This document shows, one piece after another, positions 7,107-54,702 of a stretch of 58,160 nt of DNA. The DNA lies in contig DATLYP010000069.1 of NCBI GenBank assembly GCA_035574655.1, positions 1 through 58,160 on the forward strand, written 5' to 3'. The notes beneath the pieces are model-generated. The model saw only the letters and a program-made list of their open reading frames with translations, had not been told where the DNA came from and did no database searches. Position 1 is the stretch's first letter, and each line of letters starts with the position of its first letter. This DNA comes from Gaiellaceae bacterium (GTDB lineage: Bacteria; Actinomycetota; Thermoleophilia; Gaiellales; Gaiellaceae). The translations under genes were made by a program, and so were the position numbers.

Positions 7107-9415
7107 GCGGCACGGTCTTCAAGAAGGTCGACTACGGGCTGAACACGCTCGTCGACAGCATCGAGCTCGGCGAGATCGGCCTTCCCGATCTCCAGCGCCC
7201 GTTCGTCTGGGACAGCGTCAAAGTTCGAGATCTCTTCGACTTCATGTATCGCGGGTACCCGGTCGGCCACCTTCTCTTCTGGGAGAGCGGCGCTGAACCG
7301 GGGGCGCGCCAGATCGGTGCTTCGGCCAAGCAGCTCGCACCGCGGCTCCTCATCGTCGACGGCCAGCAACGGCTCACGTCGCTCTTCGCAGTCATGAAAC
7401 AGAAGCCGGTAGTCACGAAGGACTACGCGACACGGCGGATCCAGATCGCATTTCGGCCGCGCGACGCGACGTTTGCCGTCGCGGACGCGACGACGGCGAA
7501 GGATCCCGCGTTTCTCGCGGACATCGGCGAGATCTGGGCGCGTCCCGTCTACCAAGTCATCACGGAGTTCCTGGAACGGCTACGTGAAGCTGGCGGGCTC
7601 GGCGGGCACGACGAGGAGGTCATCCCCGCCGCGCTTGGCCGGCTCGAGGGGCTGAAGTCGTATCCGTTTACCGCCCTCGTGCTCGGCGCGGACATCGACG
7701 AAGAGCGGGTCGCGGAGGTGTTCGTCCGTGTCAACTCCCAGGGCAAGAACCTGAACCAGGCGGACTTCATCCTCACGCTCATGAGCGTGTTTTGGGACGA
7801 GGGCCGGGCCGAGCTCGAGCAGTGGTCGCGGGACGTCCGTGCTCCCGGGGACCCGGCTCACAACGCATACATCGCCCCGGATCCAGATCAGCTTCTGCGC
7901 GTCGCGATCGCGCTCGGGTTCAGGAGAGGGCGGCTCGAGGACGCGTACTCGGTACTTCGCGGAAGAGACCGTGCCACCGGGAAGGTCTCACCGGAGCTCC
8001 GCGAGAAGCAGTTCGCGCGGCTGGAGGCGGCACAGGACAAGGTCCTCGACAAGGAGGTCTGGAAGGAGTACCTACAGTGCCTGCTCCGTGCGGGGCATCG
8101 ATCGTCGGCGACGATCAGCTCGAACCTCGCGATCCTCTACTCGTACGCCTTCTACCTCATCGGCAAGCACGACTACGGAGTGCCGTGGAAGCAGCTTCGC
8201 GAGGTGATCGCACGGTGGTTCTTCATGAGCTCGCTCACGGCGCGGTACTCGGCCAGTCCCGAGACGACGGTCGCCGCGGATCTCGCGTCGCTTCCCGCCG
8301 ACGGCGGCGCTGGAGGGTTTATCGCCCGGCTGGACGAGATGATCGCCCAGCGACTTACGAACGACTACTGGGAGATCACGCTCCCAGGCGACCTGGCAAC
8401 GTCCGCGAGCCGCTCCCCGTCGCTCTTCGCCTACCTGGCGGCACTCAACATCCTCGACGCGCCCGTTCTCTTCTCGAAGATGCGTGTCGCGGAGCTCTTC
8501 GACCCCGCGCTCGCCGGAGGGTGGGTCAAGGTCCAACGGCATCACCTCTTTCCACGGAAGTACCTGGAAGGCTTGGGAATCACCGATCTCAAGCAGGTCA
8601 ACCAGATCGCGAACCTGGCCGTGCTCGAGTGGCACGACAACCTGTCGATCTCCGCGACCGACCCCACCGTGTACTGGCCGGCCTATCTCGATGCGATGCG
8701 CAATCCGCCGGGCGGGATGGCGCCGTTCACCGAGCCCGAGATCGAGTCGATGCTCCATCTCCACGCGCTGCCGGAGGGGTGGCCGGAGATGCCGTTCGAC
8801 GAGTTCCTCGCTGAGCGTCGCCGGCTGATGGCCGGTGTAATCCGGGAGGCGTACGAGCGCCTTGTGCACGGCGTACCCGACGCGGTCACGACGGTCTCAT
8901 GGCCGCCCTCGCCCGCTGCAGTCGAGCACCTTCTGCATGCGGGGGAGACGACTGGAGTCGAGCTGAAGTCCTCGCTCCGGGCGGACACGCTGAACCGAGG
9001 GGTTCCGCCGAAGGTGATCGAGAAGGTCGTCGCCCGAACCGTCGCGGGGTTCATGAACGCCCACGGCGGTGTGCTCGTGATCGGAGTCGACGACGACGGC
9101 AACCCCCTCGGGCTCGAGCGTGATCTCGCCACGCTGGGCCGCAAGGATCTCGACGGTTTCCAGCAGGCACTCATCGGAGTCCTGTCCTCGTACCTCGGTA
9201 CAGATGTCGCGGCAAGCGTCCGCGTGCACCTGACCAAGGTCGGCCCAGGCGGCCACGACGTCGCACTCGTCGACTGTCCTGCGTATGGAAAGCCGGTCTT
9301 CCTGGGCGATGGCCAGGGCAAGGAGTTCCACGTCCGCGCCGGGAACACGACTCGGCTCATGGACGTCGAGGAGGCTGCGACCTACACTCGCCAGCATTGG
9401 AAGACGCCGGCGTAG
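7103..9415 (+). CDS. GmrSD-family type IV restriction enzyme (DUF262 + DUF1524 His-Me nuclease) fused to a C-terminal AlbA_2/Schlafen-like domain
   Basis: DUF262 motif LLIVDGQQRLTSLF (aa 82-95). DUF1524-type motif VQRHHLFPRKYL...NQIANLAVLEWHDNLSIS (aa 477-516). The C-terminal aa ~612-770 read GVELKSSLR...VIEKVVARTVAGFMNAHGGVLVIGVDDDGNPLGLERD, typical of the AlbA_2 (divergent AAA_4) domain. Confidence 0.8.
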   Translation: MSGTVFKKVDYGLNTLVDSIELGEIGLPDLQRPFVWDSVKVRDLFDFMYRGYPVGHLLFWESGAEPGARQIGASAKQLAPRLLIVDGQQRLTSLFAVMKQKPVVTKDYATRRIQIAFRPRDATFAVADATTAKDPAFLADIGEIWARPVYQVITEFLERLREAGGLGGHDEEVIPAALGRLEGLKSYPFTALVLGADIDEERVAEVFVRVNSQGKNLNQADFILTLMSVFWDEGRAELEQWSRDVRAPGDPAHNAYIAPDPDQLLRVAIALGFRRGRLEDAYSVLRGRDRATGKVSPELREKQFARLEAAQDKVLDKEVWKEYLQCLLRAGHRSSATISSNLAILYSYAFYLIGKHDYGVPWKQLREVIARWFFMSSLTARYSASPETTVAADLASLPADGGAGGFIARLDEMIAQRLTNDYWEITLPGDLATSASRSPSLFAYLAALNILDAPVLFSKMRVAELFDPALAGGWVKVQRHHLFPRKYLEGLGITDLKQVNQIANLAVLEWHDNLSISATDPTVYWPAYLDAMRNPPGGMAPFTEPEIESMLHLHALPEGWPEMPFDEFLAERRRLMAGVIREAYERLVHGVPDAVTTVSWPPSPAAVEHLLHAGETTGVELKSSLRADTLNRGVPPKVIEKVVARTVAGFMNAHGGVLVIGVDDDGNPLGLERDLATLGRKDLDGFQQALIGVLSSYLGTDVAASVRVHLTKVGPGGHDVALVDCPAYGKPVFLGDGQGKEFHVRAGNTTRLMDVEEAATYTRQHWKTPA

Positions 9416-36064: not shown

Positions 36065-37459
36065 ATGAGCCATCGAAGCCTGGAAGACGCGCTGCGCGAG
36101 GCCGGAAGCGCCGTCCAGCTCGCGCGCACCTCGCAGCTCGGCCCGTACGTCTACCCGGCGGTCCCGTCGGAGTTCTCGAACTGGCGCGACGAGCAGGTCG
36201 CCTGGCGGGAGACGTGCGCGCTCTTCGACCAGTCGCACCACATGACCGACCTCTACCTGGAGGGGCCGGACGTCCTCCGGCTGCTCTCCGAGCTCGGCGT
36301 CAACACCTTCTCGAACTTCGTCCCCAACCGCGCCAAGCAGTTCGTCGCCTGCAACCACGACGGGTACGTGATCGGGGACGCGATCCTCTTCTTCCTGGAC
36401 GAGAACCGGGTCTCGCTCGTGGGCCGCCCGTCGGCGCACAACTGGGTGCAGTTCCACGCCGAGACGGGCGACTACGACGTGCGCGTGGAGCGGGACGAGC
36501 GCACGGCCGTGAACCCGACGGGCCGGCGCAAGCAGTACCGCTTCCAGCTGCAGGGCCCGACCGCGCCGCAGGTGCTCGAGCGGGCGACGGGAGGGCCGCT
36601 TCCCGACATCCCCTTCTTCCGCATGGGCGAGATCACGATCGCCGGCCGCCGCGTGCGGGCCTTCCACCACGGGATGTCCGGCGCCCCCGGCATGGAGCTC
36701 TTCGGCCCCTGGGAGGACGCCGAGGAGGTGCGCGGCGCGCTCATCGAGGCCGGCCGCGACTACGGCCTTCGCCAGGTCGGCTCGCGTGTCTACGCGACGA
36801 ACACGCTCGAGTCGGGCTGGATCCCCTCCCCGCTGCCGGCCGTGTTCACGGGCGAGGAGATGCGCCCCTACCGGGAGTGGCTGCCCGCGGACGGATACGA
36901 GGGCACCGGGTCGCTCGGCGGCAGCTACTACTCGGACGACATCACCGACTACTACCTCACCCCCTGGGACCTCGGGTACGGCCAGTTCGTCAAGTTCGAC
37001 CACGACTTCGTCGGCCGTGAGGCGCTCCAGGAGATGGCCGCGTCGCCGCCGCGGCGGAAGGTGACGCTCGCCTGGAACGCGGGCGACGTCACGCGCGCGT
37101 TCGCGACCCTGTTCCAGAAGGGCACGCCCGCCAAGTACATCGACCTGCCGCTCTCCAACTACGCGACCTGGCCGTACGACCGGCTCATGGTCGGCGACGA
37201 GCTCGTCGGGATCTCCACCTTCAGCGGCTACAGCTACAACGAGCGCTCCATGCTCTCGCTCGCGATCGTCGACAACGACGTCAAGATCGGCAACGAAGTG
37301 ACGCTGATCTGGGGCGAGGAAGGCGGCGGCTCCCCGCGGCCGGTCGTGGAGCGGCACGTGCAGTGCGAGATCCGCGCCATCGTCAGCCCCTGCCCGTACT
37401 CGGAGGTCGCGCGGACCCGGTACGCGCCCGGCTGGCGGACGAAGGCGGCGGCGGTCTAG
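36065..37459 (+). CDS. ligM: Tetrahydrofolate-dependent aromatic O-demethylase (LigM/DesA-type aminomethyltransferase family), 464 aa
   Basis: Length and motifs fit the vanillate/3-O-methylgallate O-demethylase family: FSNWRDEQVAWRETCALFDQSHHM, GYVIGDAILF, LESGWIPSPLPAVFTGEEMRPYREWL, DYYLTPWDLGYGQFVKFDHDF. A MetF-like gene follows. Confidence 0.8.
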   Translation: MSHRSLEDALREAGSAVQLARTSQLGPYVYPAVPSEFSNWRDEQVAWRETCALFDQSHHMTDLYLEGPDVLRLLSELGVNTFSNFVPNRAKQFVACNHDGYVIGDAILFFLDENRVSLVGRPSAHNWVQFHAETGDYDVRVERDERTAVNPTGRRKQYRFQLQGPTAPQVLERATGGPLPDIPFFRMGEITIAGRRVRAFHHGMSGAPGMELFGPWEDAEEVRGALIEAGRDYGLRQVGSRVYATNTLESGWIPSPLPAVFTGEEMRPYREWLPADGYEGTGSLGGSYYSDDITDYYLTPWDLGYGQFVKFDHDFVGREALQEMAASPPRRKVTLAWNAGDVTRAFATLFQKGTPAKYIDLPLSNYATWPYDRLMVGDELVGISTFSGYSYNERSMLSLAIVDNDVKIGNEVTLIWGEEGGGSPRPVVERHVQCEIRAIVSPCPYSEVARTRYAPGWRTKAAAV

Positions 37460-37475: not shown

Positions 37476-39020
37476 ATGGCGGCCCTCCGCGAGAAGCTGG
37501 CAGCGCCGGGCGCGTTCGTCGTCGCCGCCGAGATCGTCACCAGCCGGGGCGTGATCACCGCCGAGCGGGGGCGGGGCGTGCTCCGGCTCGCCCGCGAGCT
37601 GGCGGAGGACCCGCGCATCGACGTCCTCTCGATCACGGACAACCCGGGCGGGCACGCGATGCTCGCCCCCGACACGCTCGGCACCGACCTCGTCTCCCGC
37701 GGGCAGGAGGTGATCATCCACCTCGCCTGCAAGGACTGGAACCGGAACGCGCTCGAGAGCCGGGGGTGGAAGCTCGCCTCCGAGGGCTTCCACAACGTGC
37801 TCGCGATGTCCGGCGACTACCCGGTGACCGGGCACGAGGGGCTCGCGAAGCCGGTCTTCGACATCGACTCGGTCGGCCTCCTCAAGCTGCTCTCGGACAT
37901 GAACGAGGGCCTGCCCGCCGGGCGCCCGCCCGGGAGCCGGCTCGACCGCACCGACTTCTTCCTCGGCTGCGTGGTCACGAATCACAAGCGCTACGAGCGG
38001 GAGGTGGTGCCGCAGTACCTGAAGCTGCGCAAGAAGGCGCGCGCGGGCGCGCGCTTCGTCGTCAACCAGATCGGCTGGAACGCGCGCAAGGACGACGAGC
38101 TGCTGCGCTACATCCGGCGCGAGCGGCTGCCGCTGCGGGCGCTCGCGAACGTGTACCTCCTCTCCCCGGCCGCGGCGCGCGCCTTCCACCGGGGGAGGAT
38201 CCCGGGGGTGGTCGTGAGCGACGAGCTGCTCGAGCTCGCGGAGCGGCAGGGCGCCTCCCCCGACAAGGGGCGGGCGTTCTTCGTCGAGCTGGCGGCGAAG
38301 CACGCGGCGGTCGCGCGCGGCCTCGGCTTCGACGGCGTCTACCTGGGCGGGCACATGCCCGCGGCCACGTTCGGGGAGATCGTCGACCGCGCCGCCTCCT
38401 TCGCGCCGGACGACTGGCGCGCGTTCGCGCGCGAGATCCACTTCCCCCTGCCCGGCGAGTTCTACCTCTTCGAGGCCGACCCGGAGACGGGGCTCTCGAG
38501 CGACGAGCTGAGCCGCGCCTACCTGGAGTCGAAGCGGGCGCGCCGGACGGAGCTCCGGGTCCCGCTCCGCTACCGGCTGAGCCGGCGCGCCCACGACGCG
38601 GTCTTCGCGCCGGAGGCGCCTCTCCGCCCCGCCGGGCGGGCGCTCTACCGCGCGGTCGAGCGCGGCCCCAGGGCGCTGGGCCGGGCGCTGCACGTGCTCG
38701 AGCAGGGGGTGAAGGTGCCGCTGTTTCGCTGCCGGGACTGCGGCGACTGCTCGCTGTCCGAGATCGCGTACGTGTGCCCGGAGTCGATGTGCGCGAAGAA
38801 CCAGCGCAACGGCCCCTGCGGCGGCACCCGCGACGGCCTGTGCGAGGTGTACGACTGGGAGTGCATCTGGTCGCAGGCCTACGAGCGCCTGAAGGCATAC
38901 GGCGAGGAGGAGGCCATGCTCGATGGCCCCGTCGTCGTCAAGGACAACGCCCTCCAGGGCACGAGCGCCTGGGCGAACACCTTCCTCGGCCGCGACCACC
39001 AGGCCGTGGAGCGGCGCTGA
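37476..39020 (+). CDS. metF: Methylenetetrahydrofolate reductase fused to a C-terminal MTHFR_C zinc-ribbon domain
   Basis: MTHFR-like TIM barrel segment (VLSITDNPGGHAM...VIIHLACKDWNRN...NVLAMSGDYP). Cys-rich tail FRCRDCGDCSLSEIAYVCPESMCAKNQRNGPCGGTRDGLCEV, typical of the MTHFR C-terminal domain. Confidence 0.8.
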   Translation: MAALREKLAAPGAFVVAAEIVTSRGVITAERGRGVLRLARELAEDPRIDVLSITDNPGGHAMLAPDTLGTDLVSRGQEVIIHLACKDWNRNALESRGWKLASEGFHNVLAMSGDYPVTGHEGLAKPVFDIDSVGLLKLLSDMNEGLPAGRPPGSRLDRTDFFLGCVVTNHKRYEREVVPQYLKLRKKARAGARFVVNQIGWNARKDDELLRYIRRERLPLRALANVYLLSPAAARAFHRGRIPGVVVSDELLELAERQGASPDKGRAFFVELAAKHAAVARGLGFDGVYLGGHMPAATFGEIVDRAASFAPDDWRAFAREIHFPLPGEFYLFEADPETGLSSDELSRAYLESKRARRTELRVPLRYRLSRRAHDAVFAPEAPLRPAGRALYRAVERGPRALGRALHVLEQGVKVPLFRCRDCGDCSLSEIAYVCPESMCAKNQRNGPCGGTRDGLCEVYDWECIWSQAYERLKAYGEEEAMLDGPVVVKDNALQGTSAWANTFLGRDHQAVERR

Positions 39021-44608: not shown

Positions 44609-46003
44609 TCAGGCTCGGGCGGCGCGCCACGTCCCCGGCGCGTAGGCCTCCCGGACCGTCTCCACGTACGGGGCCGGGCAGACGACGGCGCCGATCTCCA
44701 CCTGCACGTGCCGCTCCACCGTCGGCTTCGCGGTCCCGCCGTCCTCCTCGCCCCAGACCAGCGTCACGGGCGTTCCCGGCTCGGCGTGCTCCGCGTCCAC
44801 GACGGCCAGCGTCAGCATCTTGCCCTCGTTGGCGCTGTACCCGATCCAGGTCGAGACGCCGACGGTCTCCCCGTCCACGGTCACCCGATCGTACGGGTGC
44901 ATCGAGTACACCGCGGACGGCCAGTCGATGAACTTCGCCCGGCCCTCCTTCCGGAACATCGTCCCGATCGCCCGGAGCACGTCCTCGTCGTCGAGCTCGA
45001 GCGTCACCTTGCGCCGGTGCTCGCCCTCCGCCATCTCCTCGAGCGCTTGGCGCCCGATGAACTCGTGGTCGAACTTCACGTAGTGGCCGTACCCCAGGTC
45101 CCAGGGCGTGAAGTAGTAGTCCTCGATGTCGTCCGAGACGAAGCTCCCCCCGATGGAGGCCGTGCCCTCGTAGCCCGTCGCCGGCAGCCACTCGCGGTAG
45201 GGCCTCAGGCTCTCGCCCGTGTACACGGCCGGCAGCGGGGAGGGGATCCATCCTGACTCGAGCGTGTTGCAGGAGTAGGCCCGGCCGCCGACCAGGCGCA
45301 GCCCGAACTCCTCGCCCGCGCGGACGAGCGCCTCGTGCACGGCCTCGCGCTCCTCCCACGGCCCGAAGAGCTCCCAGCCCGGCTGGCCGGCCATCCCGTG
45401 CCGGAGCGCGTGCACGTCCTTGCCGGCGATGCGCACCACCGTCGTGTGGAAGAAGCGGAGCTCGGGCGGCTCACGGCCGAGGGCCTTCTCGATCACCTGC
45501 ATCGCGTTCGGGCCCTGCACCTGGAAGCGGTACGAGCGGCGGCGCCCGTCGGTTCGCAGCGCCCACCGCTCGTCGAGCTCGACCTCGACGTCGTAGCCCC
45601 CCGTCTCCGCGTGGTAGCGCACCCAGTTGAGCGCGGGCGCCCGCCCCACGAGGGTGAACTCGTCCTCGGCGAGCGCGTACAGGATCACGTCCCCGATCAC
45701 GTAGCCCTCCGGGGTGCAGGGCACGAAGTGCTTGGCCCGGTCGGGGGTGAAGCCGGCGAAGCTGTTGATCGCGAGCCGGGAGAGGAGCGTCAGCGCGTCC
45801 GGCCCGCGCACGGCCAGGTCGGCCATGTGGTAGGAGAGGTTGAAGAGCACGCACGTCTCCTGCCAGGCCATCACCTCGTCGCGCCAGTTCGTGTACTCCG
45901 CCGGCACGCCCGGGTAGACGTTGGGCCCCACCGGGGCGTTGCGCAGCAGCCGCACCGGGCTCTCCACCGAGCGGAGGAGGTCCTCCAGGCTGCGCGCGCT
46001 CAC
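44609..46003 (-). CDS. Second LigM/DesA-type tetrahydrofolate-dependent aromatic O-demethylase (464 aa)
   Basis: GTG (V239 of ORF 44609..46717) preceded by GAGGGAGGGG. It is collinear with the 36065 paralogue: YTNWRDEVMAWQETCVLFNLSYHM, GYVIGDVILY, LESGWIPSPLPAVYTGESLRPYREWL, DYYFTPWDLGYGHYVKFDHEF. It overlaps the GntR stop by 4 nt. Confidence 0.8.
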   Translation of the reverse strand: MSARSLEDLLRSVESPVRLLRNAPVGPNVYPGVPAEYTNWRDEVMAWQETCVLFNLSYHMADLAVRGPDALTLLSRLAINSFAGFTPDRAKHFVPCTPEGYVIGDVILYALAEDEFTLVGRAPALNWVRYHAETGGYDVEVELDERWALRTDGRRRSYRFQVQGPNAMQVIEKALGREPPELRFFHTTVVRIAGKDVHALRHGMAGQPGWELFGPWEEREAVHEALVRAGEEFGLRLVGGRAYSCNTLESGWIPSPLPAVYTGESLRPYREWLPATGYEGTASIGGSFVSDDIEDYYFTPWDLGYGHYVKFDHEFIGRQALEEMAEGEHRRKVTLELDDEDVLRAIGTMFRKEGRAKFIDWPSAVYSMHPYDRVTVDGETVGVSTWIGYSANEGKMLTLAVVDAEHAEPGTPVTLVWGEEDGGTAKPTVERHVQVEIGAVVCPAPYVETVREAYAPGTWRAARA

Positions 46004-46677
46004 CGCGCCCCTCCCTCGAGGACCCCGCGGCTCGCCTGGTCGATGCCGCCCGGAAGCGCGCGCCGCTGCACGGCCCGGGCGACGTTGAAGAGGTGGGCGC
46101 GCATCGCCGCCTCCGCCTCGTCCGGCCGCCCGGCGGCGACCGCCTCCACGATCGCCGTGTGCTCCCGAAGCGACGCCGCGGCGCGGCCCGGAAGCAGGAT
46201 CGTCCGGTACTGGTAGCGCACGGTCTGCGAGCTCAGGGAGCGGATCAGCCTGCACGCCGTGGCGTGCCCGGAGAGCTCGAGCAGGGTCGCGTGCAGGTCG
46301 GCGTTCGCGTCGGAGGCGGCGAGCAGGTCGCCCGCCTCCAAGAGCTCGCGCTGCCGGGCGAGGCGGGCGCGCAGCCGCTCCGCGCCTGCGTCCTCGATCC
46401 GCTCGGCCGCCTGCCGCGCCGCCAGCCCCTCGAGGACGGCGCGCGCCTGGAGGATCTCGATCGCCTCCTCGTCCGTGACCCGGCGCACGCGCGCTCCCCG
46501 GTGCGGCTCCCGCACGACGAGACCCTCCTGCTCGAGCCGGATCAGCGCGGTGCGGACGGCTCCCCGCGACATGTCGAAGGCGGCGCCGATGTCCGCCTCC
46601 ACGAGCCGGGCGTCCGGCGCGATGTACCCGCGGACGATGGCCTCGCGGAGCGCCTCGAAGCTGGCATCGGTCGGCAT
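46000..46677 (-). CDS. GntR-family transcriptional regulator (FCD subfamily)
   Basis: wHTH segment ALREAIVRGYIAPDARLVEADIGAAFDMSRGAVRTALIRLEQEGLVVREPHRGARV, plus an FCD-like helical domain. Confidence 0.8.
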   Translation of the reverse strand: MPTDASFEALREAIVRGYIAPDARLVEADIGAAFDMSRGAVRTALIRLEQEGLVVREPHRGARVRRVTDEEAIEILQARAVLEGLAARQAAERIEDAGAERLRARLARQRELLEAGDLLAASDANADLHATLLELSGHATACRLIRSLSSQTVRYQYRTILLPGRAAASLREHTAIVEAVAAGRPDEAEAAMRAHLFNVARAVQRRALPGGIDQASRGVLEGGAR

Positions 46678-46709
46678 CGCGCGCCTCCATCCTGCCGATT
46701 GCTGGAAAG

Positions 46710-46721
46710 ATCGTCAACGAT
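46710..46721. promoter_or_regulatory. Candidate GntR operator ATCGT-CA-ACGAT
   Basis: Perfect 5-nt inverted repeat with a GT..AC core. It lies in the 83-bp divergent region between the GntR gene (start 46677) and the 46761 operon. The flanks are AT-rich (GATTGCTGGAAAG, TTTTGTCGAAAAG). Confidence 0.35.
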
Positions 46722-46760
46722 TTTGTCGAAAAGCCGGTAGGGTTCGCTCCCGCGAGGCCG

Positions 46761-47567
46761 ATGAGCGACGGGGCAGGCGAGCAGGTGCGCGAGAGGAAGC
46801 CGCTCCGGGTGGCGGTCCTCGGGCTCGGCGAGGCGGGAGGCAGGCTCGCGGCCGAGCTGGCCGCGGCCGGGGCCGAGGTGCGCGGCTACGACCCCGACCC
46901 CGGCCGGGAGGAGCCCGCCGTTGCGCGGGCGCCGACGGCCGCCGTCGCCGTCGGGGGGTGCGACGCGGTGCTGAGCGTCAACTCGGCGAAGGCGGCGCTC
47001 GAGGCCGCGGAAGCGGCGCTCCCCGCCCTGCGCGCGGGGGCGCTCTACGCCGACCTGAACACCGCCTCCCCCGCGCTCAAGCGGGAGCTCGCCGCGCTCG
47101 CAGAGCGAGCGGGCGCGCGCTTCGCCGACGTCGCCCTGCTTGGCCCGGTGCCGGAGCGCGGGCTCCGCACGCCCGCGCTCGCCTCGGGCACGGGGGCAGC
47201 CGCTTTCGCCGAGCTCTTCGGCCCGCTCGGGATGCCGGTCACGGTCGTCTCCCCGGAGGCGGGCGAGGCGGCAGCGCGGAAGCTCCTGCGCTCCGTGTTC
47301 ATGAAAGGGCTTGCCGCCGCCGTCGTCGAGAGCATGCAGGCGGCGGAGGCGGCGGGGTGCGGCGAGTGGCTCGCGCGCGAGATCGAGGCGGTGGTCGGCA
47401 GGCGCTACCTGGAGCGCGCCCTCGCGGGCAGCCGCGCCCACGCCGCCCGGCGCGTGGACGAGATGGAGGCCGCCCGCGAGCTTCTGGTCGAGCTCGGCGT
47501 GGAGCCGCACGTCGCCTCCGCGAGCGCGGCGCAGCTCGCGGGGCTGGCGGCGGCGCGAGGGCGGTAG
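46761..47567 (+). CDS. NAD(P)-binding oxidoreductase (6-phosphogluconate-dehydrogenase-like N-domain + DUF1932-like C-domain)
   Basis: Rossmann segment RVAVLGLGEAGGRLAAELAAAGAEVRGYDP. C-terminal segment AARKLLRSVFMKGLAAAVVESMQAAEAAGC. Confidence 0.6.
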   Translation: MSDGAGEQVRERKPLRVAVLGLGEAGGRLAAELAAAGAEVRGYDPDPGREEPAVARAPTAAVAVGGCDAVLSVNSAKAALEAAEAALPALRAGALYADLNTASPALKRELAALAERAGARFADVALLGPVPERGLRTPALASGTGAAAFAELFGPLGMPVTVVSPEAGEAAARKLLRSVFMKGLAAAVVESMQAAEAAGCGEWLAREIEAVVGRRYLERALAGSRAHAARRVDEMEAARELLVELGVEPHVASASAAQLAGLAAARGR

Positions 47568-47573
47568 GCGGGG

Positions 47574-48503
47574 ATGGCGGCGCCTACCACCGAAGCGCGG
47601 CCGAGCGGGCGCGCGCGCGCGCTCGTCCGGGGCGGCTTCGACCTGCACGTGCACGTCGCCCCCGACGTCCCCCCGCGGCGCATCGACGACGTCGCGCTCG
47701 CCCGGCGCTTCGCCGAGGTCGGGCTCGGCGGCTTCGCCCTCAAGTCGCACTACACCTCGACCGCGGAGCGGGCGCAGGTGGTCGCGGGCGTGGTCCCAAA
47801 GGTGCGGGTCGTCGGCACGCTCGCCCTGAACCGGGCGGTGGGCGGGATGAACGCGCTCGCCGTCGAGATCGCCGCCCGCGAGGGTGCCCGCATCGTCTGG
47901 ATGCCGACCGTCGACTCGCCGGCGGAAACGGCCGGGCGGAGGGAGCCGCGGCCGGGCGACAAGGTGCCCCAGTGGGCGCGCCTGCAGCACGAGCTGCGCG
48001 CCCTCGGGCTCGGCGTGGAGCCGGTGCAGGTGACCGGGCCCGGCCGCGAGCTGCTCCCGGAGACGCGCGAGGTGCTGCGCGCGGTCGCCCGCCACGGGCT
48101 CGTCCTCGCCACCGGCCACCTCGACCGGGACGACACGTTCGCGGTCGTGGAGGGGGCGCTCGAGGAGGGCGTCGCCGAGATCGTGATCACCCACCCCGAG
48201 TACCCCTGCCAGAACCTCTCCCTCGAGGACCAGCGCGCGCTCGCCGACCGCGGCTGCCTGCTCGAGCGCTGCCTGAGCACCCCGCTCTCCGGCAAGACGA
48301 CCTGGGAGCGCGTCTTCGAGGGGGTGCGCGCGGTCGGGCCCGAGCGCACGCTCTTCTCGAGCGACTGCGGCAACCCCGACTACCCGCCGGTGGAGGACGG
48401 GCTCGCCCTCTGGGCCGACCGCCTGCTCGAGGCCGGCTTCGACGAGGACGAGGTGCAGGGGATGATCGTCGACCAGTCGCGCCGGCTGGCGGGTGCGGCA
48501 TGA
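47574..48503 (+). CDS. Amidohydrolase-fold (TIM-barrel metal-dependent hydrolase-like) protein
   Basis: HxH-type start GGFDLHVHVAPD, then LKSHYTS, WMPTVDS, LATGHLD, ITHPEYP, FSSDCGNP. This spacing resembles amidohydrolase-superfamily ligands. The family assignment is tentative. Confidence 0.5.
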   Translation: MAAPTTEARPSGRARALVRGGFDLHVHVAPDVPPRRIDDVALARRFAEVGLGGFALKSHYTSTAERAQVVAGVVPKVRVVGTLALNRAVGGMNALAVEIAAREGARIVWMPTVDSPAETAGRREPRPGDKVPQWARLQHELRALGLGVEPVQVTGPGRELLPETREVLRAVARHGLVLATGHLDRDDTFAVVEGALEEGVAEIVITHPEYPCQNLSLEDQRALADRGCLLERCLSTPLSGKTTWERVFEGVRAVGPERTLFSSDCGNPDYPPVEDGLALWADRLLEAGFDEDEVQGMIVDQSRRLAGAA

Positions 48504-49213
48504 GCCGGCGCCTGCTCGTCGTGGGCGCCCACGCGGCGGACTTCGTCTGGCGGGCGGGCGGCGCGATCGCGCTCGCCGCCTCGGGGGGCGGCGAGGCGCT
48601 CGTGCTCGCGCTCTCCTACGGGGAGCGGGGCGAGTCGGGGGAGCTCTGGGCCGAACCCGGCCAGACGGTGGAGCGGGTGAAGGAGATCCGGCACCAGGAG
48701 GCGGAGCGGGCGGCCGCGGCGCTCGGGGCGAGGTTCGAGTGCCTCGACCTCGGCGACTACCCGCTCGAGGTGGGCGGGGACGCGCTCGCCGCCCTCGCCG
48801 ACCGCATCCGCGCCTTCGCGCCCGACGTCCTGCTCACCCACACGGACCGCGACCCGTTCAACCCGGACCACGCGGCGGCGTACGCCGCCGTCGAGCGGGC
48901 GCGCGCGCTCGCCGCGGGGGCGGGGGTGCCGAGCGCGTTCGAGACGGTGCGGCCGCCGGAGCTCCTCCTCTTCGAGCCGCACCAGCCGGAGCTCTGCAAC
49001 TTCGTCCCCACCACGTTCGTCGACATCACGCCCGTCATCGAGCGGAAGCGCGCGGCGATGGCGGAGATGCGGTCGCAGGCATACCTCGCCGCCCACTACG
49101 AGCAGCGGGCAGAGCAGCGGGGAAACCACGCCCGGCGCTCCTCGGGCGACGCCGCGATCCGCTACGCGGAGGCCTTCCAGCGCGTGACCCCCCAGGTCGT
49201 GAGCGCCCTGTGA
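48500..49213 (+). CDS. galB: PIG-L/LmbE-family hydrolase, GalB-like 4-oxalomesaconate hydratase candidate
   Basis: LLVVGAHAADFVWRAGGAIALAASGGGEALVLALSYGERGESGELW...FECLDLGDYPL...HTDRDPFNPDH closely matches my recollection of Pseudomonas putida GalB, a PIG-L family member. The ATG overlaps the previous stop. Confidence 0.65.
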   Translation: MSRRLLVVGAHAADFVWRAGGAIALAASGGGEALVLALSYGERGESGELWAEPGQTVERVKEIRHQEAERAAAALGARFECLDLGDYPLEVGGDALAALADRIRAFAPDVLLTHTDRDPFNPDHAAAYAAVERARALAAGAGVPSAFETVRPPELLLFEPHQPELCNFVPTTFVDITPVIERKRAAMAEMRSQAYLAAHYEQRAEQRGNHARRSSGDAAIRYAEAFQRVTPQVVSAL

Positions 49214-49836
49214 GCGACGTCTTCGCCGAGCTCGCGCGGCTGGGGACGGCCACCGTGCACGAGGCGGCCGGCCGCGCGCCGGTCGTGGACGTCCCGCTTC
49301 TGCAGGTCGTCCCCGGCTCGCGCGCCGCCGGCCCCGCGCGCACGGTCCGCTGCGGCCAAGGCGACAACCTGATGGTGCACGCGGCCGTCGCGGAGGCGGA
49401 GCCGGGCGAGGTCCTCGTCCTTACCATGCCCGCGCCCGCCCCCGTCGCGCTCGTGGGCGAGCTGCTCGCGATCCAGGCGAAGGGGCGCGGGGTCGCGGCG
49501 CTGCTCGTGGACGGCGCGGTGCGCGACCTCGACGGCCTGCGCGCCCTCGGCCTCCCGATCTGGGCCCGCTACGTCCGGGTGCGGGGGGCGGAGAAGAAGG
49601 TGGCGGGCGCGATCGGCGAGCCGGTGGAGGTGGGCGGGGCGACGATCCGCCAGGGGGACGCCGTCGTCTTGGACGCGGACGGGGCGGTCGTCGTCGCCCG
49701 GGAGCGGGTGGCGGAGGTGCTGGCGGCGGCGAGGGCGCGCGCGGAGTGGGAGCGGGAGAAGCGCGCAAAGCTCGAGGCCGGCGCCCTCTCCTACGACCTG
49801 GACGGGCTGCGCGGGCTGGTGGAGCGGGCGCGGTGA
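49210..49836 (+). CDS. galC: RraA-like 4-carboxy-4-hydroxy-2-oxoadipate aldolase / oxaloacetate decarboxylase (LigK/GalC type)
   Basis: LGTATVHEAAGR..., RCGQGDNLMVHAAV, GEVLVLTM, GELLAIQAKGRGVAALLVDGAVRD, GLPIWARYV is the RraA/HMG-CHA aldolase pattern. The GTG overlaps the previous stop. Confidence 0.7.
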   Translation: MSDVFAELARLGTATVHEAAGRAPVVDVPLLQVVPGSRAAGPARTVRCGQGDNLMVHAAVAEAEPGEVLVLTMPAPAPVALVGELLAIQAKGRGVAALLVDGAVRDLDGLRALGLPIWARYVRVRGAEKKVAGAIGEPVEVGGATIRQGDAVVLDADGAVVVARERVAEVLAAARARAEWEREKRAKLEAGALSYDLDGLRGLVERAR

Positions 49837-50819
49837 GCGGGCCGCGCGAGCCGCTGCACGAGGTCGCGCGGATCGCCCACGCCGAGCTGCTCACGCCCGC
49901 GCCGGAGGAGAGCCTCCGCTTCTTCCGGGACGTGCTCGGGATGGAGGAGGAGGCGCGCGCAGGCCAGTCGGTCTTCCTCCGCGGCTGGGGCGACTACCTG
50001 CGCTACAGCCTCAAGCTCACGGAGGCCCCGCAGGCCGGCCTGGGCCACGTCGCGCTCCGCGCCTGGAGCCCGGCCGCGCTCGAGCGACGCGTGGCCGCGC
50101 TCGAGGCGGCGGGCGCCGGCACCGGGTGGATCGAGGGCGACGTCGGCCACGGGCCCGCCTACCGTTTCACCGACCCGGACGGGCACGTCTTCGAGCTCCT
50201 CTACGAGGCGGAGCGGTACGTTCCGCCCGAGCACCTGCGTCCGTCTTGGCGGAACCAGCCGCAGCGCTACGTCGGCCGGGGCGCGGCGGTGAAGCGGCTC
50301 GACCACGTCAACCTGCTCGCCGCCGACGTGCGCGCGAACCGGGAGTTCGCGCAGGAGCTCCTCGGCTACCGCCTGTACGAGCGGATCGAGCTCGACGACG
50401 GCACCGAGGCGGGCGCCTGGCTCAGCCTCACGATCGCCGCCCACGAGCTGATCTACGTCGCCGACGCCTACCGCGCCCGTGGGCGCCTCCACCACCTCGC
50501 CTTCTGGGTGGACACGCGCGAGGAGTGCCTGCGCGCCGCCGACCTCTTCGTCGAGCACGGGGTCCCGATCGAGGCCGCCCCCTCCAAACACGGGATCGCC
50601 CAGGGCTTCTTCCTCTACGGCTTCGAGCCGGGGGGCAACCGGATCGAGGTGACGACGGGCGGCTACTTCGTCTACGACCCGGACTTCGAGCCGATCACGT
50701 GGTCGGCCGCCGAGCGCGCCCGCGGCCAGTACTGGGGCGTGAAGACGGTCGAGAGCTTTCACACGTACGGGACGCCCGACGTGGCCGGGGGAGGCGGCGG
50801 GCCGGGCGCCCCGCGATAG
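49833..50819 (+). CDS. Type I extradiol ring-cleavage dioxygenase (two-domain VOC, catechol 2,3-dioxygenase-like)
   Basis: Two glyoxalase/VOC repeats: IAHAELLTP..SLRFFRDVLGM...GLGHVALR, and RLDHVNLLAADV...REFAQELLGYRL...LHHLAFWV...GFEPGGNRIEV. Confidence 0.75.
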   Translation: MSGPREPLHEVARIAHAELLTPAPEESLRFFRDVLGMEEEARAGQSVFLRGWGDYLRYSLKLTEAPQAGLGHVALRAWSPAALERRVAALEAAGAGTGWIEGDVGHGPAYRFTDPDGHVFELLYEAERYVPPEHLRPSWRNQPQRYVGRGAAVKRLDHVNLLAADVRANREFAQELLGYRLYERIELDDGTEAGAWLSLTIAAHELIYVADAYRARGRLHHLAFWVDTREECLRAADLFVEHGVPIEAAPSKHGIAQGFFLYGFEPGGNRIEVTTGGYFVYDPDFEPITWSAAERARGQYWGVKTVESFHTYGTPDVAGGGGGPGAPR

Positions 50820-50823
50820 GGTG

Positions 50824-50834
50824 TTTGCATACAG
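50824..50834. promoter_or_regulatory. TTTGCATACAG motif upstream of pobA
   Basis: This is the same 11-mer as at 44532-44542. It lies 58 nt upstream of the pobA GTG, in the only sizeable gap (72 nt) of the 46.7-57.8 kb + strand gene string. Confidence 0.3.
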
Positions 50835-50891
50835 GTGCGAGGGCGAGGCGAGACGACGGCGAGGCGCGCGTAGGCGCGCCGGGACGCGGGC

Positions 50892-52061
50892 GTGCGCACG
50901 CAGGTGGGGATCGTCGGAGCCGGGCCCGCGGGCCTCACCCTCGGCCACCTGCTCGCCCGGGAGGGGATCGAGTCGGTCGTGCTCGAGTCGCGGTCGCGGG
51001 AGTACGTGGAGCACCGGATCCGGGCCGGCGTCCTGGAGCAGGGCTCGGCGCAGCTCCTGCGCGACGCGGGCGTCGGCGAGCGCATGGACCGGGAGGGGAT
51101 GGTGCACGGCGGCATCTACCTGCAGTTCGGGGGAGAGCGCCACCACGTGCCGATGCGCGAGCTCACCGGCGCCGCCATCCTCATCTACGGCCAGACCGAG
51201 ATCGTGAAGGACCTGATCGCGGCGCGGCTCCAGGCGGGGCTTCCCCTCCTCTTCGAGGCGGAGGCGGTCGCGGTGCGCGGCCTGGAGAGCGAGCGCCCGC
51301 GCGTCGAGTTCGTGCACGAGGGGCGGCGGGAGGAGCTCGAGTGCGACGTCGTCGCGGGCTGCGACGGCTTCCACGGCGTCTGTCGGGAGTCGATCCCGCG
51401 CGGAGCCCTGCGCTCGTACGTCCGCGAGTACCCGTTCGGCTGGCTCGGCATCCTCGCCCGGGTGGCCCCCTCGACGGACGAGCTCGTGTACGCCCACTCG
51501 GACCGCGGCTTCGCCCTCCTCTCGCTGCGCTCGCCGCAGCTCTCCCGCTACTACCTGCAGGTGGCCCACGACGAGGACGTCGCCGAGTGGCCCGACGAGC
51601 GCATCTGGGAGGAGCTCGCGCGCCGCACCGCGCTCGAAGGGTGGACGCTCGCGGAGGGGCCGATCCTGGAGAAGGGCGTGACCGGGATGCGCAGCTTCGT
51701 CTGCGAGCCGATGCAGTACGGGCGCCTCTTCCTGGCCGGCGACGCCGCGCACATCGTCCCGCCGACGGGAGCGAAGGGGCTGAACCTGGCCCTGCGCGAC
51801 GTGCAGGTGCTCGCGGAGGCGCTCATCGCCTGGTACCGGCGCGGCGACCGCTCGGCGCTCGAGCGCTACTCGGAGCGCTGCCTGCGCCGCGTCTGGCGCT
51901 TCGAGCACTTCGCCTGGTGGATGACGACCATGCTCCACCTCGACCCGGGCGGGGACGAGTTCGACCGCAGGCTGCAGCTCGCGCAGCTCCGGCACGTGAC
52001 CGGATCGCGCGCGGCGGCGACGGCGCTGGCCGAGAACTACACGGGGGTCGTCGCTGTCTAG
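50892..52061 (+). CDS. pobA: 4-hydroxybenzoate 3-monooxygenase
   Basis: MRTQVGIVGAGPAGLTLGHLLAREGIESVVLE (FAD GxGxxG) and RLFLAGDAAHIVPPTGAKGLNLA. The 389-aa length and overall pattern are classic PobA. Confidence 0.9.
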   Translation: MRTQVGIVGAGPAGLTLGHLLAREGIESVVLESRSREYVEHRIRAGVLEQGSAQLLRDAGVGERMDREGMVHGGIYLQFGGERHHVPMRELTGAAILIYGQTEIVKDLIAARLQAGLPLLFEAEAVAVRGLESERPRVEFVHEGRREELECDVVAGCDGFHGVCRESIPRGALRSYVREYPFGWLGILARVAPSTDELVYAHSDRGFALLSLRSPQLSRYYLQVAHDEDVAEWPDERIWEELARRTALEGWTLAEGPILEKGVTGMRSFVCEPMQYGRLFLAGDAAHIVPPTGAKGLNLALRDVQVLAEALIAWYRRGDRSALERYSERCLRRVWRFEHFAWWMTTMLHLDPGGDEFDRRLQLAQLRHVTGSRAAATALAENYTGVVAV

Positions 52062-52071
52062 GGCGACGCTG

Positions 52072-52908
52072 ATGCCGCTCGCGGAGGCCGTCGCCCGCGA
52101 CGTGCGGGACGGGGACACGGTCGCCTTGGAGGGGTTCACGCACCTGATCCCGCACGCCGCCGGGCACGAGCTGATCCGCCAAGGCCGGCGCGAGCTCACG
52201 CTCGTGCGCATGACCCCGGACGTGATCTACGACCAGCTGATCGGCATGGGCTGCGCGCGCAAGCTCGTCTTCTCCTGGGGCGGCAACCCGGGGGTCGGCT
52301 CCCTGCATCGGCTGCGGGACGCGGTCGAGAACGGCTGGCCGGCCCCGCTCGAGCTCGAGGAGCACTCGCACACGGGGATGGCGGCCGCCTACGCGGCGGG
52401 CGCCGCGAACCTCCCCTTCGGCGTGCTCCGCGGCTACGAGGGCACCGACCTGGCGGCACGGACGCGCGTCGCGACCATCGCCTGCCCCTTCACCGGGGAG
52501 CGCGTGCGCGCCGTGCCCGCGCACCGGCCGGACGTGGGGATCGTGCACGCCCAGCGGGCCGACCGGCGCGGCAACGTGCAGCTGTGGGGGATCCTCGGCG
52601 TCCAGAAGGAGGTGGTGCTCGCCTCCCGGCGCGCGATCGTGACCGTCGAGGAGGTCGTGGACGAGCTCGAGCCCCTGCCCGGCGCGATCGTGCTTCCCTC
52701 CTGGGTGGTCGGCGCCGTCTGCCCGGCGCCCGGGGGCGCCCATCCCTCCTACGCGCACGGCTACTACGACCGGGACAACGACTTCTATCGCCGCTGGGAC
52801 GCCATCAGCCGCGACCGGGACGTGTTTCGGCAGTGGATGGAGCGGCACGTGCTCGGAACCGCGGACGTCGTCGAGTACCGGCGGAGCCTGGAGGCAGCGG
52901 CCGCGTGA
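52072..52908 (+). CDS. pcaI: CoA-transferase subunit A (3-oxoadipate CoA-transferase, glutaconate-CoA-transferase-like type)
   Basis: VRDGDTVALEGFTHLIPHAAGHELIRQG..LTLVRMTPD...GNPGVGSLHRLRDAVE...VGIVHAQRADRRGNVQLWG. It sits within the pca operon. Confidence 0.7.
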   Translation: MPLAEAVARDVRDGDTVALEGFTHLIPHAAGHELIRQGRRELTLVRMTPDVIYDQLIGMGCARKLVFSWGGNPGVGSLHRLRDAVENGWPAPLELEEHSHTGMAAAYAAGAANLPFGVLRGYEGTDLAARTRVATIACPFTGERVRAVPAHRPDVGIVHAQRADRRGNVQLWGILGVQKEVVLASRRAIVTVEEVVDELEPLPGAIVLPSWVVGAVCPAPGGAHPSYAHGYYDRDNDFYRRWDAISRDRDVFRQWMERHVLGTADVVEYRRSLEAAAA

Positions 52909-53621
52909 CCGCGCCCGCCTACACCGCCGACGAGATGATGGCGATCGAGGCCGCCCGCCGGCTGCGGGACGGCAGCGTCTGCTTCGTCGGCATCGGCCTC
53001 CCCAGCCTCGCCTGCAACCTCGCGCGCGCCACGCACGCCCCGGAGACGGTGCTCGTGTACGAGAGCGGCACGATCGGGGCGAAGCCGCGGGAGCTTCCGC
53101 TCTCGATCGGCGACGGCGAGCTCGCCGAGACGGCGGACGTCGTCGTCTCCGTCCCGGAGATGTTCGCCTACTGGCTGCAGGGAGGGCGCATCGACGTGGG
53201 CTTTCTCGGCGCCGCCCAGATCGACCGGTACGGCAACCTGAACAGCACGGTGATCGGCAGCTACGACCGACCCAGGGTGCGGCTGCCCGGCGGGGGAGGC
53301 GCGCCGGAGATCGCGACCCAGGCGCGCGAGGTGTTCGTCATGCTCCGCCACAGCCCCCGCGCGTTCGTCGAGCGGCTCGACTTCCGCACGAGCTCCGGCG
53401 AGCGCGTGCGCGTCGTCGTCACCGACCTCGGCGTGCTCGAGCCACGCGGCCGCGAGCGCGAGCTGACGCTGACCCGCGTCCACCCCGGCGTCTCCGCCGA
53501 GCAGGCGCGGGCGGCCACCGGCTGGCCGCTCCGCGTCGCCGACGACCTGCGGGAGACCGAGCCCCCGAGCGAGCGCGAGCTGGCCGCGCTCCGCTCCCTG
53601 AAGACGAAAGGAGCCGCATGA
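52905..53621 (+). CDS. pcaJ: CoA-transferase subunit B
   Basis: GTG overlapping the previous stop. FVGIGLPSLACNLA...VLVYESGTIGAKP...GAAQIDRYGNLNSTVIG...RLPGGGGAPEIA. Confidence 0.7.
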   Translation: MTAPAYTADEMMAIEAARRLRDGSVCFVGIGLPSLACNLARATHAPETVLVYESGTIGAKPRELPLSIGDGELAETADVVVSVPEMFAYWLQGGRIDVGFLGAAQIDRYGNLNSTVIGSYDRPRVRLPGGGGAPEIATQAREVFVMLRHSPRAFVERLDFRTSSGERVRVVVTDLGVLEPRGRERELTLTRVHPGVSAEQARAATGWPLRVADDLRETEPPSERELAALRSLKTKGAA

Positions 53622-54298
53622 CCGCCGTTCCCGGCCTCGACCCCGACCCGCCCTACCTGTACCCCGACTACGTCGCCACGCGGACGCGGGCGCCGCGGCG
53701 CCCGCTGCTCCCGCTCCCCGAGGAGCTGCACTCGCTCGAGGCGCCGGTCTTCGGGGAGGACGCCCTCGACCCGAACGACGCCGACCTCACCGCCCACGGC
53801 GAGGGGCCGCCGCTCGGGGAGCGGATCATCGTCTCCGGCCGGCTCGTGGACGAGGACGGGCGGCCGATCCCGAACGCGCTGATCGAGATCTGGCAGGCGA
53901 ACGCGGCCGGCCGCTACCGGCACGAGGTCGACCGCCACCCGGCTCCGCTCGACCCCAACTTCACGGGCGCCGGAAGGACGCTGACCGACGCCGACGGCCG
54001 CTACCGCTTCCTCACGATCAAGCCGGGCGCCTACCCGTGGAAGAACCACCCGAACGCGTGGCGGCCCGCCCACATCCACTTCTCCGTCTTCGGACGGGCG
54101 TTCACGCAGCGGCTCGTCACCCAGATGTACTTCCCGGGCGACCCGCTCTTCCCCTACGACCCCATCTTCAACTCGGTTCGCGACCCGGCCGCGCGCGAGC
54201 TGCTCGTGGCGGCCTTCGACCTGGAGGCGACGGAGCCGGAGTGGGCGCTCGCGTACCGCTTCGACATCGTCCTCCGCCGAACCCCCTTCGAGCCATGA
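53618..54298 (+). CDS. pcaH: Protocatechuate 3,4-dioxygenase beta subunit
   Basis: IEIWQANAAGRYRHEVD...LDPNFTGAGRTLTDADGRYRFLTIKPGAYPWKNHPNAWRPAHIHFSVFG is the PcaH signature. Confidence 0.9.
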   Translation: MTAVPGLDPDPPYLYPDYVATRTRAPRRPLLPLPEELHSLEAPVFGEDALDPNDADLTAHGEGPPLGERIIVSGRLVDEDGRPIPNALIEIWQANAAGRYRHEVDRHPAPLDPNFTGAGRTLTDADGRYRFLTIKPGAYPWKNHPNAWRPAHIHFSVFGRAFTQRLVTQMYFPGDPLFPYDPIFNSVRDPAARELLVAAFDLEATEPEWALAYRFDIVLRRTPFEP

Positions 54299-54702
54299 GG
54301 ACGCCCTCGCAGACGGCCGGGCCGTTCCTCTCGATCGGGCTCGCGCGGCGCGTGCAGAACGAGCTTCCCGGGGGGAGCGTGCCGCTGCGGGGCTACGTCT
54401 GGGACGGCGAGGGCCGGCCCGTGGACGACGCGCTCGTCGAGCTCTGGAACCCCGCCTTCGGCTTCGCCCGCTGCCCGACGGACGCGGAGGGCGGGTTCAC
54501 CTTCCTGCTCCCGCCCGCGGCCCGCCGCTTCGAGGTGATGGTCTTCGCGCGCGGGCTGCTCAAGCCCGTCCTCACCCGGCTGTACGCCCCGCCCGGCGAG
54601 GGGGCCGAGGATCCGACGATGGTCGCCCGCCCGGAGGGGGACGGCCTGCGCTTCGACGTGCACCTGCAGGGCGAGCGGGAGACGGCGTTCTTTGAGCTCT
54701 GA
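54295..54702 (+). CDS. pcaG: Protocatechuate 3,4-dioxygenase alpha subunit (short, 135 aa)
   Basis: Internal ATG (M87) of ORF 54037..54702, overlapping the pcaH stop. TPSQTAGPFLSIGL...LRGYVWDGEGRPVDDALVELWN...GGFTF...VMVFARGLLKPVLTRLY. Confidence 0.8.
   Translation: MRTPSQTAGPFLSIGLARRVQNELPGGSVPLRGYVWDGEGRPVDDALVELWNPAFGFARCPTDAEGGFTFLLPPAARRFEVMVFARGLLKPVLTRLYAPPGEGAEDPTMVARPEGDGLRFDVHLQGERETAFFEL

Follow-up and report, generated by a model that had tools for sequence, protein, structure and literature searches.

A conserved Gaiellaceae operon joining GalB- and GalC-type enzymes to a putative VOC-family ring opener: a candidate route for gallate and 3-O-methylgallate

Introduction

What does an operon degrade when its lower-pathway enzymes resemble those of gallate catabolism and its only ring-cleaving candidate comes from a different protein family? 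The question is raised by five genes (g1 to g5; positions 46761-50819) in a stretch of DNA from a metagenome-assembled genome of Gaiellaceae (Thermoleophilia; 2.07 Mb, 81% complete, GC content about 75%). The window, meaning the whole stretch of 58,160 nucleotides analyzed here (GenBank assembly GCA_035574655.1, contig DATLYP010000069.1, positions 1 to 58,160), had earlier been interpreted in a sequence-only reading as holding a possible meta-cleavage route for gallate or protocatechuate, with a DUF1932 dehydrogenase (g1) and an amidohydrolase-fold protein (g2) as potential stand-ins for LigC and LigI. Our analysis suggests, with confidence slightly above even, that the operon converts lignin- and tannin-derived tri- and dihydroxybenzoates to pyruvate and oxaloacetate, mainly through the gallate/3-O-methylgallate branch. 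We infer all functions other than those of the hydratase g3 and the aldolase g4 from homology and gene neighborhood.

Operon structure and recurrence

Open reading frame analysis combined with frame-specific third-position GC called all five genes on the + strand, and third-position GC was 0.9-1.0 in the called frames (Table 1). The genes are translationally coupled: g1 and g2 are separated by 6 nt, and the next three junctions are stop/start overlaps (ATGA, GTGA and GTGA). Reading frames, third-position GC, junctions and family matches all agree, bearing out the five-gene operon of the sequence-only reading as well as its named parts, namely GalB-like, GalC/LigK-like, two-domain VOC, DUF1932 and amidohydrolase-fold genes. 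Two database proteins from Gaiellaceae relatives (P0002, 525 aa; P0003, 503 aa) each contain RraA-like and VOC domains; these are either aldolase-dioxygenase fusions or read-through gene calls over the GTGA overlap.

Since 54 of the 80 Gaiellaceae species loci that we compared keep all five genes in unchanged order, the arrangement is not a product of chance. Ten loci have only a DUF6282-VOC pair, the tightest unit there, followed by LigM-MetF, and three have DUF1932-VOC. In two Gaiellaceae genomes with a split locus, the rest of the module lies elsewhere as GalB-GalC-DUF1932 or DUF6282-GalB-GalC, such that all five genes are kept. Among other Actinomycetota, family f18 has DUF6282-GalB-GalC-VOC-DUF1932 between two LigM-type genes, family f26 has GntR-GalB-GalC-PrpF-VOC, and the module is also present in families f4 and f31. 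Genome G150 carries GntR-DUF6282-GalB-GalC-VOC-SnoaL_4, and a plasmid of Thermus oshimai JL-2 carries VOC-GntR-DUF6282-PIG-L-aldolase-DUF1932. On plasmids of Agrobacterium vitis, A. tumefaciens (from walnut) and Thioclava, LysR-DUF1932 is divergent from GalB-VOC-GalC-GalD. The pairing of a VOC gene with GalB/GalC genes recurs in Thermus, in other Actinomycetota, and in Alpha- and Gammaproteobacteria.

Lower pathway

g3 matched the solved structure of Pseudomonas putida GalB, a 4-oxalomesaconate (OMA) hydratase, over its full length (PDB 5cgz; residues 4-235; E 5e-56), and on this homology its assignment as an OMA hydratase is secure. g4 matched the CHA aldolase structure 3noj (E 5e-42; CHA, 4-carboxy-4-hydroxy-2-oxoadipate) and is recognized as a LigK aldolase by TIGR02798 (E 1e-45), while its score on NF006731 was just below the cut-off (170.9 versus 179; E 3e-50). 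Of the 11 active-site residues published for the P. putida HMG/CHA aldolase, 10 have equivalents in g4 at a constant offset of 18 (Arg40, Asn71, His75, Gly101, Arg123, Asp124, Gly144, Lys147, Arg195 and Glu199), the sole change being Thr145 to Ala. Two of those kept, Asn71 and Lys147, have been proposed to bind the C5-carboxylate of CHA (PMC5065237, from which the residue roles are taken). Homology and active-site residues together make the assignment of g4 as a CHA aldolase secure. Given these residues and the full-length GalB match, the end of the pathway, from OMA through CHA to pyruvate and oxaloacetate, is well supported.

The same pairing of a GalB-type PIG-L hydratase with a GalC-type RraA-like aldolase is found in the gal cluster of P. 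putida KT2440, to which the DUF6282 and DUF1932 genes are additional here. Sphingobium sp. SYK-6, with its pathways for protocatechuate 4,5-cleavage (LigAB, LigC, LigI, LigU, LigJ, LigK) and for syringate (DesA, LigM, DesZ, DesB), shares the LigK-type aldolase and the end products with the operon, but its hydratase is LigJ whereas the one here is GalB-type.

Ring opening

The candidate ring opener sets the operon apart from these systems: GalA of P. putida KT2440 is a LigB-type enzyme while g5 is a type I enzyme of the VOC family, and the LigAB/DesZ/DesB-type enzymes of SYK-6 have no counterpart here. A search for the LigB family (PF02900) gave no match in the source genome, which is 81% complete, nor in the complete chromosome (3.1 Mb) of an operon-bearing member of Gaiellaceae, in keeping with the earlier claim that the sole ring-cleaving candidate of the operon is a type I VOC enzyme. 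When aligned to homoprotocatechuate 2,3-dioxygenase (HPCD), g5 has the Fe ligands H158, H221 and E272 and the second-sphere residues H204, H253 and Y262, with H158, H221, E272, H204 and Y262 corresponding to HPCD H155, H214, E267, H200 and Y257.

g5 has its Fe ligands, its catalytic His and Tyr and its fold of two domains in common with type I catechol 2,3-dioxygenases (3lm4, 7q2a and the T. thermophilus HB8 plasmid enzyme) and with 9wgj. Might the operon then serve ordinary meta-cleavage of catechol, alkylcatechols or other substituted catechols, with unrelated substrates for g3 and g4? The score of g5 on the "catechol 2,3-dioxygenase" equivalog TIGR03211 exceeds the cut-off (329.5 versus 320.2), its PDB relatives 3lm4 and 7q2a are annotated as catechol 2,3-dioxygenases, and the HB8 enzyme, which comes from a phenol/catechol meta-cleavage cluster, is 53% identical to it. 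However, in a tree that included more distant VOC proteins, g5 and every GalB/GalC-linked VOC found (from Gaiellales, T. oshimai, Methylobacterium, Roseomonas, Agrobacterium, Thioclava and one metagenomic contig) formed a single clade with support of 98/97, while the HB8 enzyme grouped with Rhodococcus enzymes in a clade apart. This sets the dioxygenase off from catechol-pathway enzymes, in a distinct clade that is linked to GalB/GalC genes in five phyla or classes. Furthermore, the operon contains none of the genes of a catechol meta-pathway (hydroxymuconic semialdehyde dehydrogenase or hydrolase, 4-oxalocrotonate tautomerase or decarboxylase, the hydratase of that route, DmpFG), and g4 keeps the residues proposed for the extra carboxylate of CHA. 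A catechol pathway is thus very improbable as the function of the operon.

Conserved residues also distinguish the two clades. R295 and Q299 are invariant and K/R140 and K/R297 are conserved in the GalB/GalC-linked clade, whereas the catechol clade has hydrophobic residues there. These positions align (HMMER) with the R292/R293 loop of HPCD, which helps bind the substrate carboxylate; the placement of R295 and Q299 in the pocket derives from this sequence alignment and from background on HPCD, not from coordinates. These basic residues, a feature that together with the clade and the GalB/GalC context separates g5 from type I catechol 2,3-dioxygenases, are consistent with a carboxylated substrate. 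The structure 9wgj, closely related to g5 (E 2e-119), has the clade residues R295, Q299, T305 and H310 in common with it. That entry is titled "catechol 1,2-dioxygenase", yet the protein is of VOC type and belongs to the clade linked to GalB/GalC genes; no paper on it was found in a literature search without most subscription journals.

We propose that g5 is a gallate/3-O-methylgallate dioxygenase, possibly also of protocatechuate 4,5-type. All homologues retrieved in a search with g5 were Gaiellaceae proteins almost identical to it. In comparisons of the VOCs of DUF6282-type and PrpF-type clusters, no residues separated the two groups beyond phylogeny, and the T. oshimai VOC sided with the PrpF group, so that sequence does not discriminate between gallate and protocatechuate as the substrate. 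In Pantoea sp. At-9b, a VOC gene of the clade stands alone amid ABC-transporter genes on pPAT9B03 (L105, 7983-8963), and galB-galC-galD-DUF1932 lies on another plasmid.

DUF6282, a putative hydrolase

g2 belongs to DUF6282, not to PF04909 (Amidohydro_2), the family of the SYK-6 hydrolase, and a sequence search of the PDB with g2 gave no match. AlphaFold2, given 25 homologues, modeled g2 as a TIM barrel with a pLDDT of 93, and D23, H25, H27, K57, H59, H182, H207, E231 and D264, a binuclear-type ligand set, are invariant. The structures closest to the model, with Z of 18-20 over 236-260 aligned residues at an rmsd of 3.1-3.4 Å, were dipeptidases, TatD nucleases, the E. coli phosphotriesterase homology protein (PHP) and the lactonase Lmo2620. 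A probable 2-pyrone-4,6-dicarboxylate (PDC) hydrolase, 4i6k, reached Z 16.6, below TatD, PHP and the dipeptidases (Z 19-20).

Because all top structural neighbors are metal hydrolases, the simplest reading of g2 is as an ester or lactone hydrolase acting on a ring-fission product. Judging from the model, it is plausible that g2 hydrolyzes the methyl ester of 4-carboxy-2-hydroxy-6-methoxy-6-oxohexa-2,4-dienoate (CHMOD) and/or the PDC lactone, and as a methyl-esterase acting after fission of 3-O-methylgallate it would fit as well as in a LigI-like role. The earlier suggestion of a LigI-like enzyme is plausible, g2 being a metal hydrolase from LigI's superfamily, but the family is a different one.

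In Pseudomonas sp. NGC7 (VanA1B1, MgaAB, MgaC, MgaD, GalD, GalB, GalC), syringate is processed through 3-O-methylgallate, MgaAB, CHMOD, MgaC, MgaD and then GalD/B/C; MgaC is an alpha/beta-hydrolase methylesterase, and MgaD is a SnoaL-like protein (pfam13577) and putative CHMA isomerase (PMC12314914). The logic of 3-O-methylgallate fission, ester hydrolysis, GalB and GalC would be shared with the operon, but MgaAB is LigAB-type and MgaC an alpha/beta hydrolase, whereas the candidates here are a VOC protein and a DUF6282 protein; demethylation is Rieske-type in NGC7 and tetrahydrofolate-dependent here. SnoaL_4 (NTF2-like) genes, of MgaD's Pfam family, lie directly beside the VOC gene in G150 (L163, 11191-11943) and in locus L088 (229-654). 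In Roseomonas, a MenH/PcaD-like alpha/beta hydrolase gene is located between LigAB-like and VOC genes, near VanA/VanB-like genes. The former genes are a parallel to MgaD and the latter to MgaC.

Alternatively, the pathway could be for gallate only, with g2 as a non-orthologous OMA tautomerase that replaces GalD/LigU and g1 as an accessory to the lower pathway. GalB clusters contain either DUF6282 (Gaiellales, f18, G150, G070, Thermus) or PrpF, the GalD family (f26, L089, Agrobacterium/Thioclava, Pantoea), and never both, and g2 could instead supply the isomer needed by GalB. GalD of P. putida KT2440 has counterparts in the proteobacterial and f26 relatives of the operon, while no PrpF/GalD (PF04303) match was found in the operon or in the source genome. 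The amidohydrolase superfamily also includes isomerases, such as uronate isomerase. However, the complete ligand set of binuclear type in g2 and the fact that hydrolases alone make up its nearest structures speak against this, and the strict alternation is equally explained by ester or lactone hydrolysis in one group of clusters versus direct cleavage followed by a tautomerase in the other. We regard a tautomerase role for g2 as quite unlikely, and return to g2 as a hydrolase below.

DUF1932, a probable dehydrogenase

In 18 module-linked homologues of g1, the GxG motif, D44 and K174 (in a HIBADH-type G-x5-K motif) are near-invariant, as are the further basic or His residues K107, R177, K182, H227, R230 and R231. 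D44 suggests a preference for NAD+, and g1 is probably an NAD+-dependent hydroxyacid dehydrogenase. A protein-cluster search with g1 gave only unnamed DUF1932 clusters. Like SYK-6, with its LigI and LigC, the operon encodes a hydrolase and an NAD-dehydrogenase, but LigC belongs to Gfo/Idh/MocA whereas g1 is 6PGDH-like with a DUF1932 domain.

A protocatechuate route would give each gene a step: g1 would oxidize 4-carboxy-2-hydroxymuconate-6-semialdehyde (CHMS), after which g3 and g4 would act. The many conserved basic residues of g1 and its likeness to NAD+-dependent dehydrogenases fit such a route, as do the pobA gene adjoining the module both in the window and in T. oshimai, the Roseomonas DUF1932 gene that overlaps a LigI-like lactonase gene beside a LigAB-like dioxygenase, and the aldehyde dehydrogenase gene that follows the VOC gene in contig L089. 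Other contexts of DUF1932 point away from it. In Acidovorax carolinensis (L202, pACP3.2; DUF1932 at 7968-8900), the gene order is LigJ-ligK-DUF1932-LigI-ligA-ligB-Gfo/Idh/MocA, such that a 315-aa Gfo/Idh/MocA gene takes the LigC position of the LigAB cluster and DUF1932 is present as well. In Agrobacterium, Thioclava and Pantoea sp. At-9b, DUF1932 is found with GalD and no lactonase gene; in the Pantoea strain it follows galB-galC-galD (L203, 7998-8882). It forms a pair with ligK on its own in Azospirillum lipoferum 4B (L204, 7965-8894). Furthermore, no DUF1932 match was found anywhere in G150, which has DUF6282, or in two f26 genomes, all three of them 100% complete with the rest of the module present.

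Across phyla, the most constant neighbor of DUF1932 is the CHA aldolase/lower pathway. In view of this and of the Acidovorax, Azospirillum, Pantoea and G150 contexts, we do not accept g1 as the LigC stand-in that the sequence-only reading had put forward; a LigC analogue was also our working model, dropped on the absences in G150 and f26 and on the three proteobacterial loci. In these three loci, DUF1932 is a conserved gene within, or adjoining, LigAB/LigK or GalBCD clusters that are canonical in other respects.

Substrate and proposed pathway

The protocatechuate 3,4-dioxygenase gene pcaH scored above the equivalog cut-off in all ten DUF6282-type module genomes tested, indicating that protocatechuate already has an ortho route. 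The operon has its regulator region in common with the DesA-type gene of the window, and elsewhere forms one gene string with LigM-MetF, which in other Gaiellaceae comes immediately after the VOC gene. LigM-type genes are present at 70 of the 80 Gaiellaceae loci and DesA-type genes (>70% identity) at 33. DesA implies use of syringate, and these genomes offer no other candidate for the opening of gallate. In the walnut Agrobacterium, a tannase gene adjoins the cluster. Taken together, the ubiquity of pcaH, the DesA/LigM linkage, and the tannase and NGC7 parallels favor the gallate/3-O-methylgallate branch; a route centered on protocatechuate, although it deserves serious consideration, seems unlikely to us.

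In the gallate/3-O-methylgallate pathway that we favor, most likely for syringyl and tannin compounds, DesA and LigM would convert syringate to 3-O-methylgallate and gallate. g5 would then cut the ring adjacent to its vicinal hydroxyls, yielding OMA/4-carboxy-2-hydroxymuconate from gallate and, from 3-O-methylgallate, the methyl ester CHMOD, which cyclizes to the lactone PDC. g2 would hydrolyze the CHMOD ester and/or the PDC lactone, g3 would hydrate OMA to CHA, and g4 would split CHA into pyruvate and oxaloacetate. Protocatechuate is possibly accepted too, in which case g1 could oxidize the semialdehyde product; across bacteria, genes of the g1 type accompany the CHA-aldolase step irrespective of dioxygenase type. 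A GntR/FCD repressor presumably governs the divergent promoters.

Several observations weigh against this pathway. A route for gallate alone would leave g1 without a task, although most lineages retain it. The T. oshimai module lies beside pobA and a Rieske oxygenase gene, with no demethylase and no pcaH on the plasmid, and contig L089 pairs its VOC gene with an aldehyde dehydrogenase gene; both contexts point to protocatechuate in those organisms. The TIGR03211 score of g5, its identity to the HB8 enzyme, the basis of the pocket placement, and the mutual exclusion of DUF6282 and PrpF belong on the same side. The gallate and protocatechuate contexts would be compatible if the enzyme, like LigAB, had a broad specificity.

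Flanking genes and regulation

Table 1. Features of the operon and its surroundings, with positions in the window
Feature	Position	Strand	Description
g1	46761..47567	+	268 aa; NAD-dependent beta-hydroxyacid-dehydrogenase-like; Pfam NAD_binding_2 + DUF1932
g2	47574..48503	+	309 aa; Pfam DUF6282, 201 bits; putative amidohydrolase-superfamily metal hydrolase
g3	48500..49213	+	237 aa; Pfam PIG-L; GalB-type OMA hydratase
g4	49210..49836	+	208 aa; RraA-like; LigK/GalC-type CHA aldolase
g5	49833..50819	+	328 aa; two VOC domains; putative type I extradiol dioxygenase
GntR/FCD regulator	46000..46677	-	Pfam GntR + FCD; divergent from operon
DesA-type tetrahydrofolate-dependent syringate O-demethylase	44609..46000	-	NF047633 833 vs cut-off 800; co-directional with GntR gene
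LigM-type vanillate/3-O-methylgallate O-demethylase	36065..37459	+	NF047885 643.7 vs cut-off 580
MetF-like methylene-tetrahydrofolate reductase	37476..39020	+	follows LigM-type gene
Operator-like element	46707..46726		AAGATCGTCAACGATTTTGT; core ATCGTCAACGAT at 46710-46721; in 83-bp GntR/g1 spacer

The sequence-only reading had placed the operon between a LigM-type demethylase/GntR pair and a complete ortho-cleavage pobA-pca operon. A GntR/demethylase pair and a pobA-pca string do lie on either side, but the adjoining demethylase is DesA-type and the LigM-type gene is located elsewhere in the window (Table 1). These tetrahydrofolate-dependent demethylases with MetF are a further likeness to SYK-6. 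The downstream string consists of pobA, a CoA-transferase pair, pcaH, a short pcaG, pcaB, pcaD and pcaC, and it may be incomplete: the pcaG candidate (54295-54702) has 135 aa and scores 77.5 bits against a cut-off of 126, the CoA-transferase pair (52072-53621) matches the PcaIJ models weakly (29.8 and 62.8 bits), and no thiolase was seen. The proposal that the cell has two fates for demethylated lignin monomers fits our data, probably as a division of labor in which protocatechuate takes the ortho route indicated by pcaH in all ten genomes tested, while gallate and 3-O-methylgallate pass through the operon.

In Gaiellaceae, Actinomycetota f18 and f26, G150 and T. oshimai, the module comes with a GntR gene. 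The spacer between this gene and g1 contains, in most of the Gaiellaceae loci compared, a near-identical 20-mer (AAGATCGTCAACAATTCTGT), and the element in the window, which fits the T.GT-N-AC.A logic of GntR operators, is a candidate GntR site. Consensus scans of positions 46500-51100, uninformative at 75% GC, revealed neither a sigma-70-like promoter nor an intrinsic terminator. The 72 nt that separate g5 from pobA contain TTGCATACA (50825-50833), with no terminator detected there. Transcription may read through from the meta operon into the pobA-pca string. Among the sequencing runs listed, only the probable source metagenome contains this stretch, and no RNA run does.

Conclusions

Our search, with most subscription journals outside its reach, found no publication describing the module (DUF6282, DUF1932 or VOC with oxalomesaconate/gallate, or Gaiella with lignin acids). 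The ring opener most likely comes from another protein family than in every published pathway of this kind. What would be new here is the exchange of the ring-opening enzyme for one of another superfamily, together with two families lacking an assigned function in the middle of the pathway.

A broader proposal combines three claims: that the VOC clade comprises real ring cleavers of gallate and 3-O-methylgallate (perhaps also of protocatechuate 4,5-type) in many soil Actinomycetota, Thermus and plant-associated Proteobacteria, that DUF6282 proteins are ester or lactone hydrolases, and that DUF1932 proteins perform an overlooked step at the CHA-aldolase end, including in canonical LigAB clusters. 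We offer this combination tentatively, as it is rather doubtful that all three parts hold at once. If they do, this would be a first function for three enzyme families (the VOC clade, DUF6282 and DUF1932). Should our main reading hold, a conserved DUF1932 gene would be flagged within textbook protocatechuate 4,5-cleavage clusters. The single-subunit ring opener, for instance the T. oshimai homologue, and the new hydrolase and dehydrogenase families would then also become available for lignin valorization, with the production of PDC or OMA-derived compounds as a possible use.

Syringyl lignin units and gallotannins are a major input of plant carbon to soil, where Gaiellaceae are abundant and uncultured. 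If our reading is correct, current annotation mislabels the key ring opener as a catechol 2,3-dioxygenase, and gallate and syringate catabolism would as a consequence be under-counted in metagenomes.

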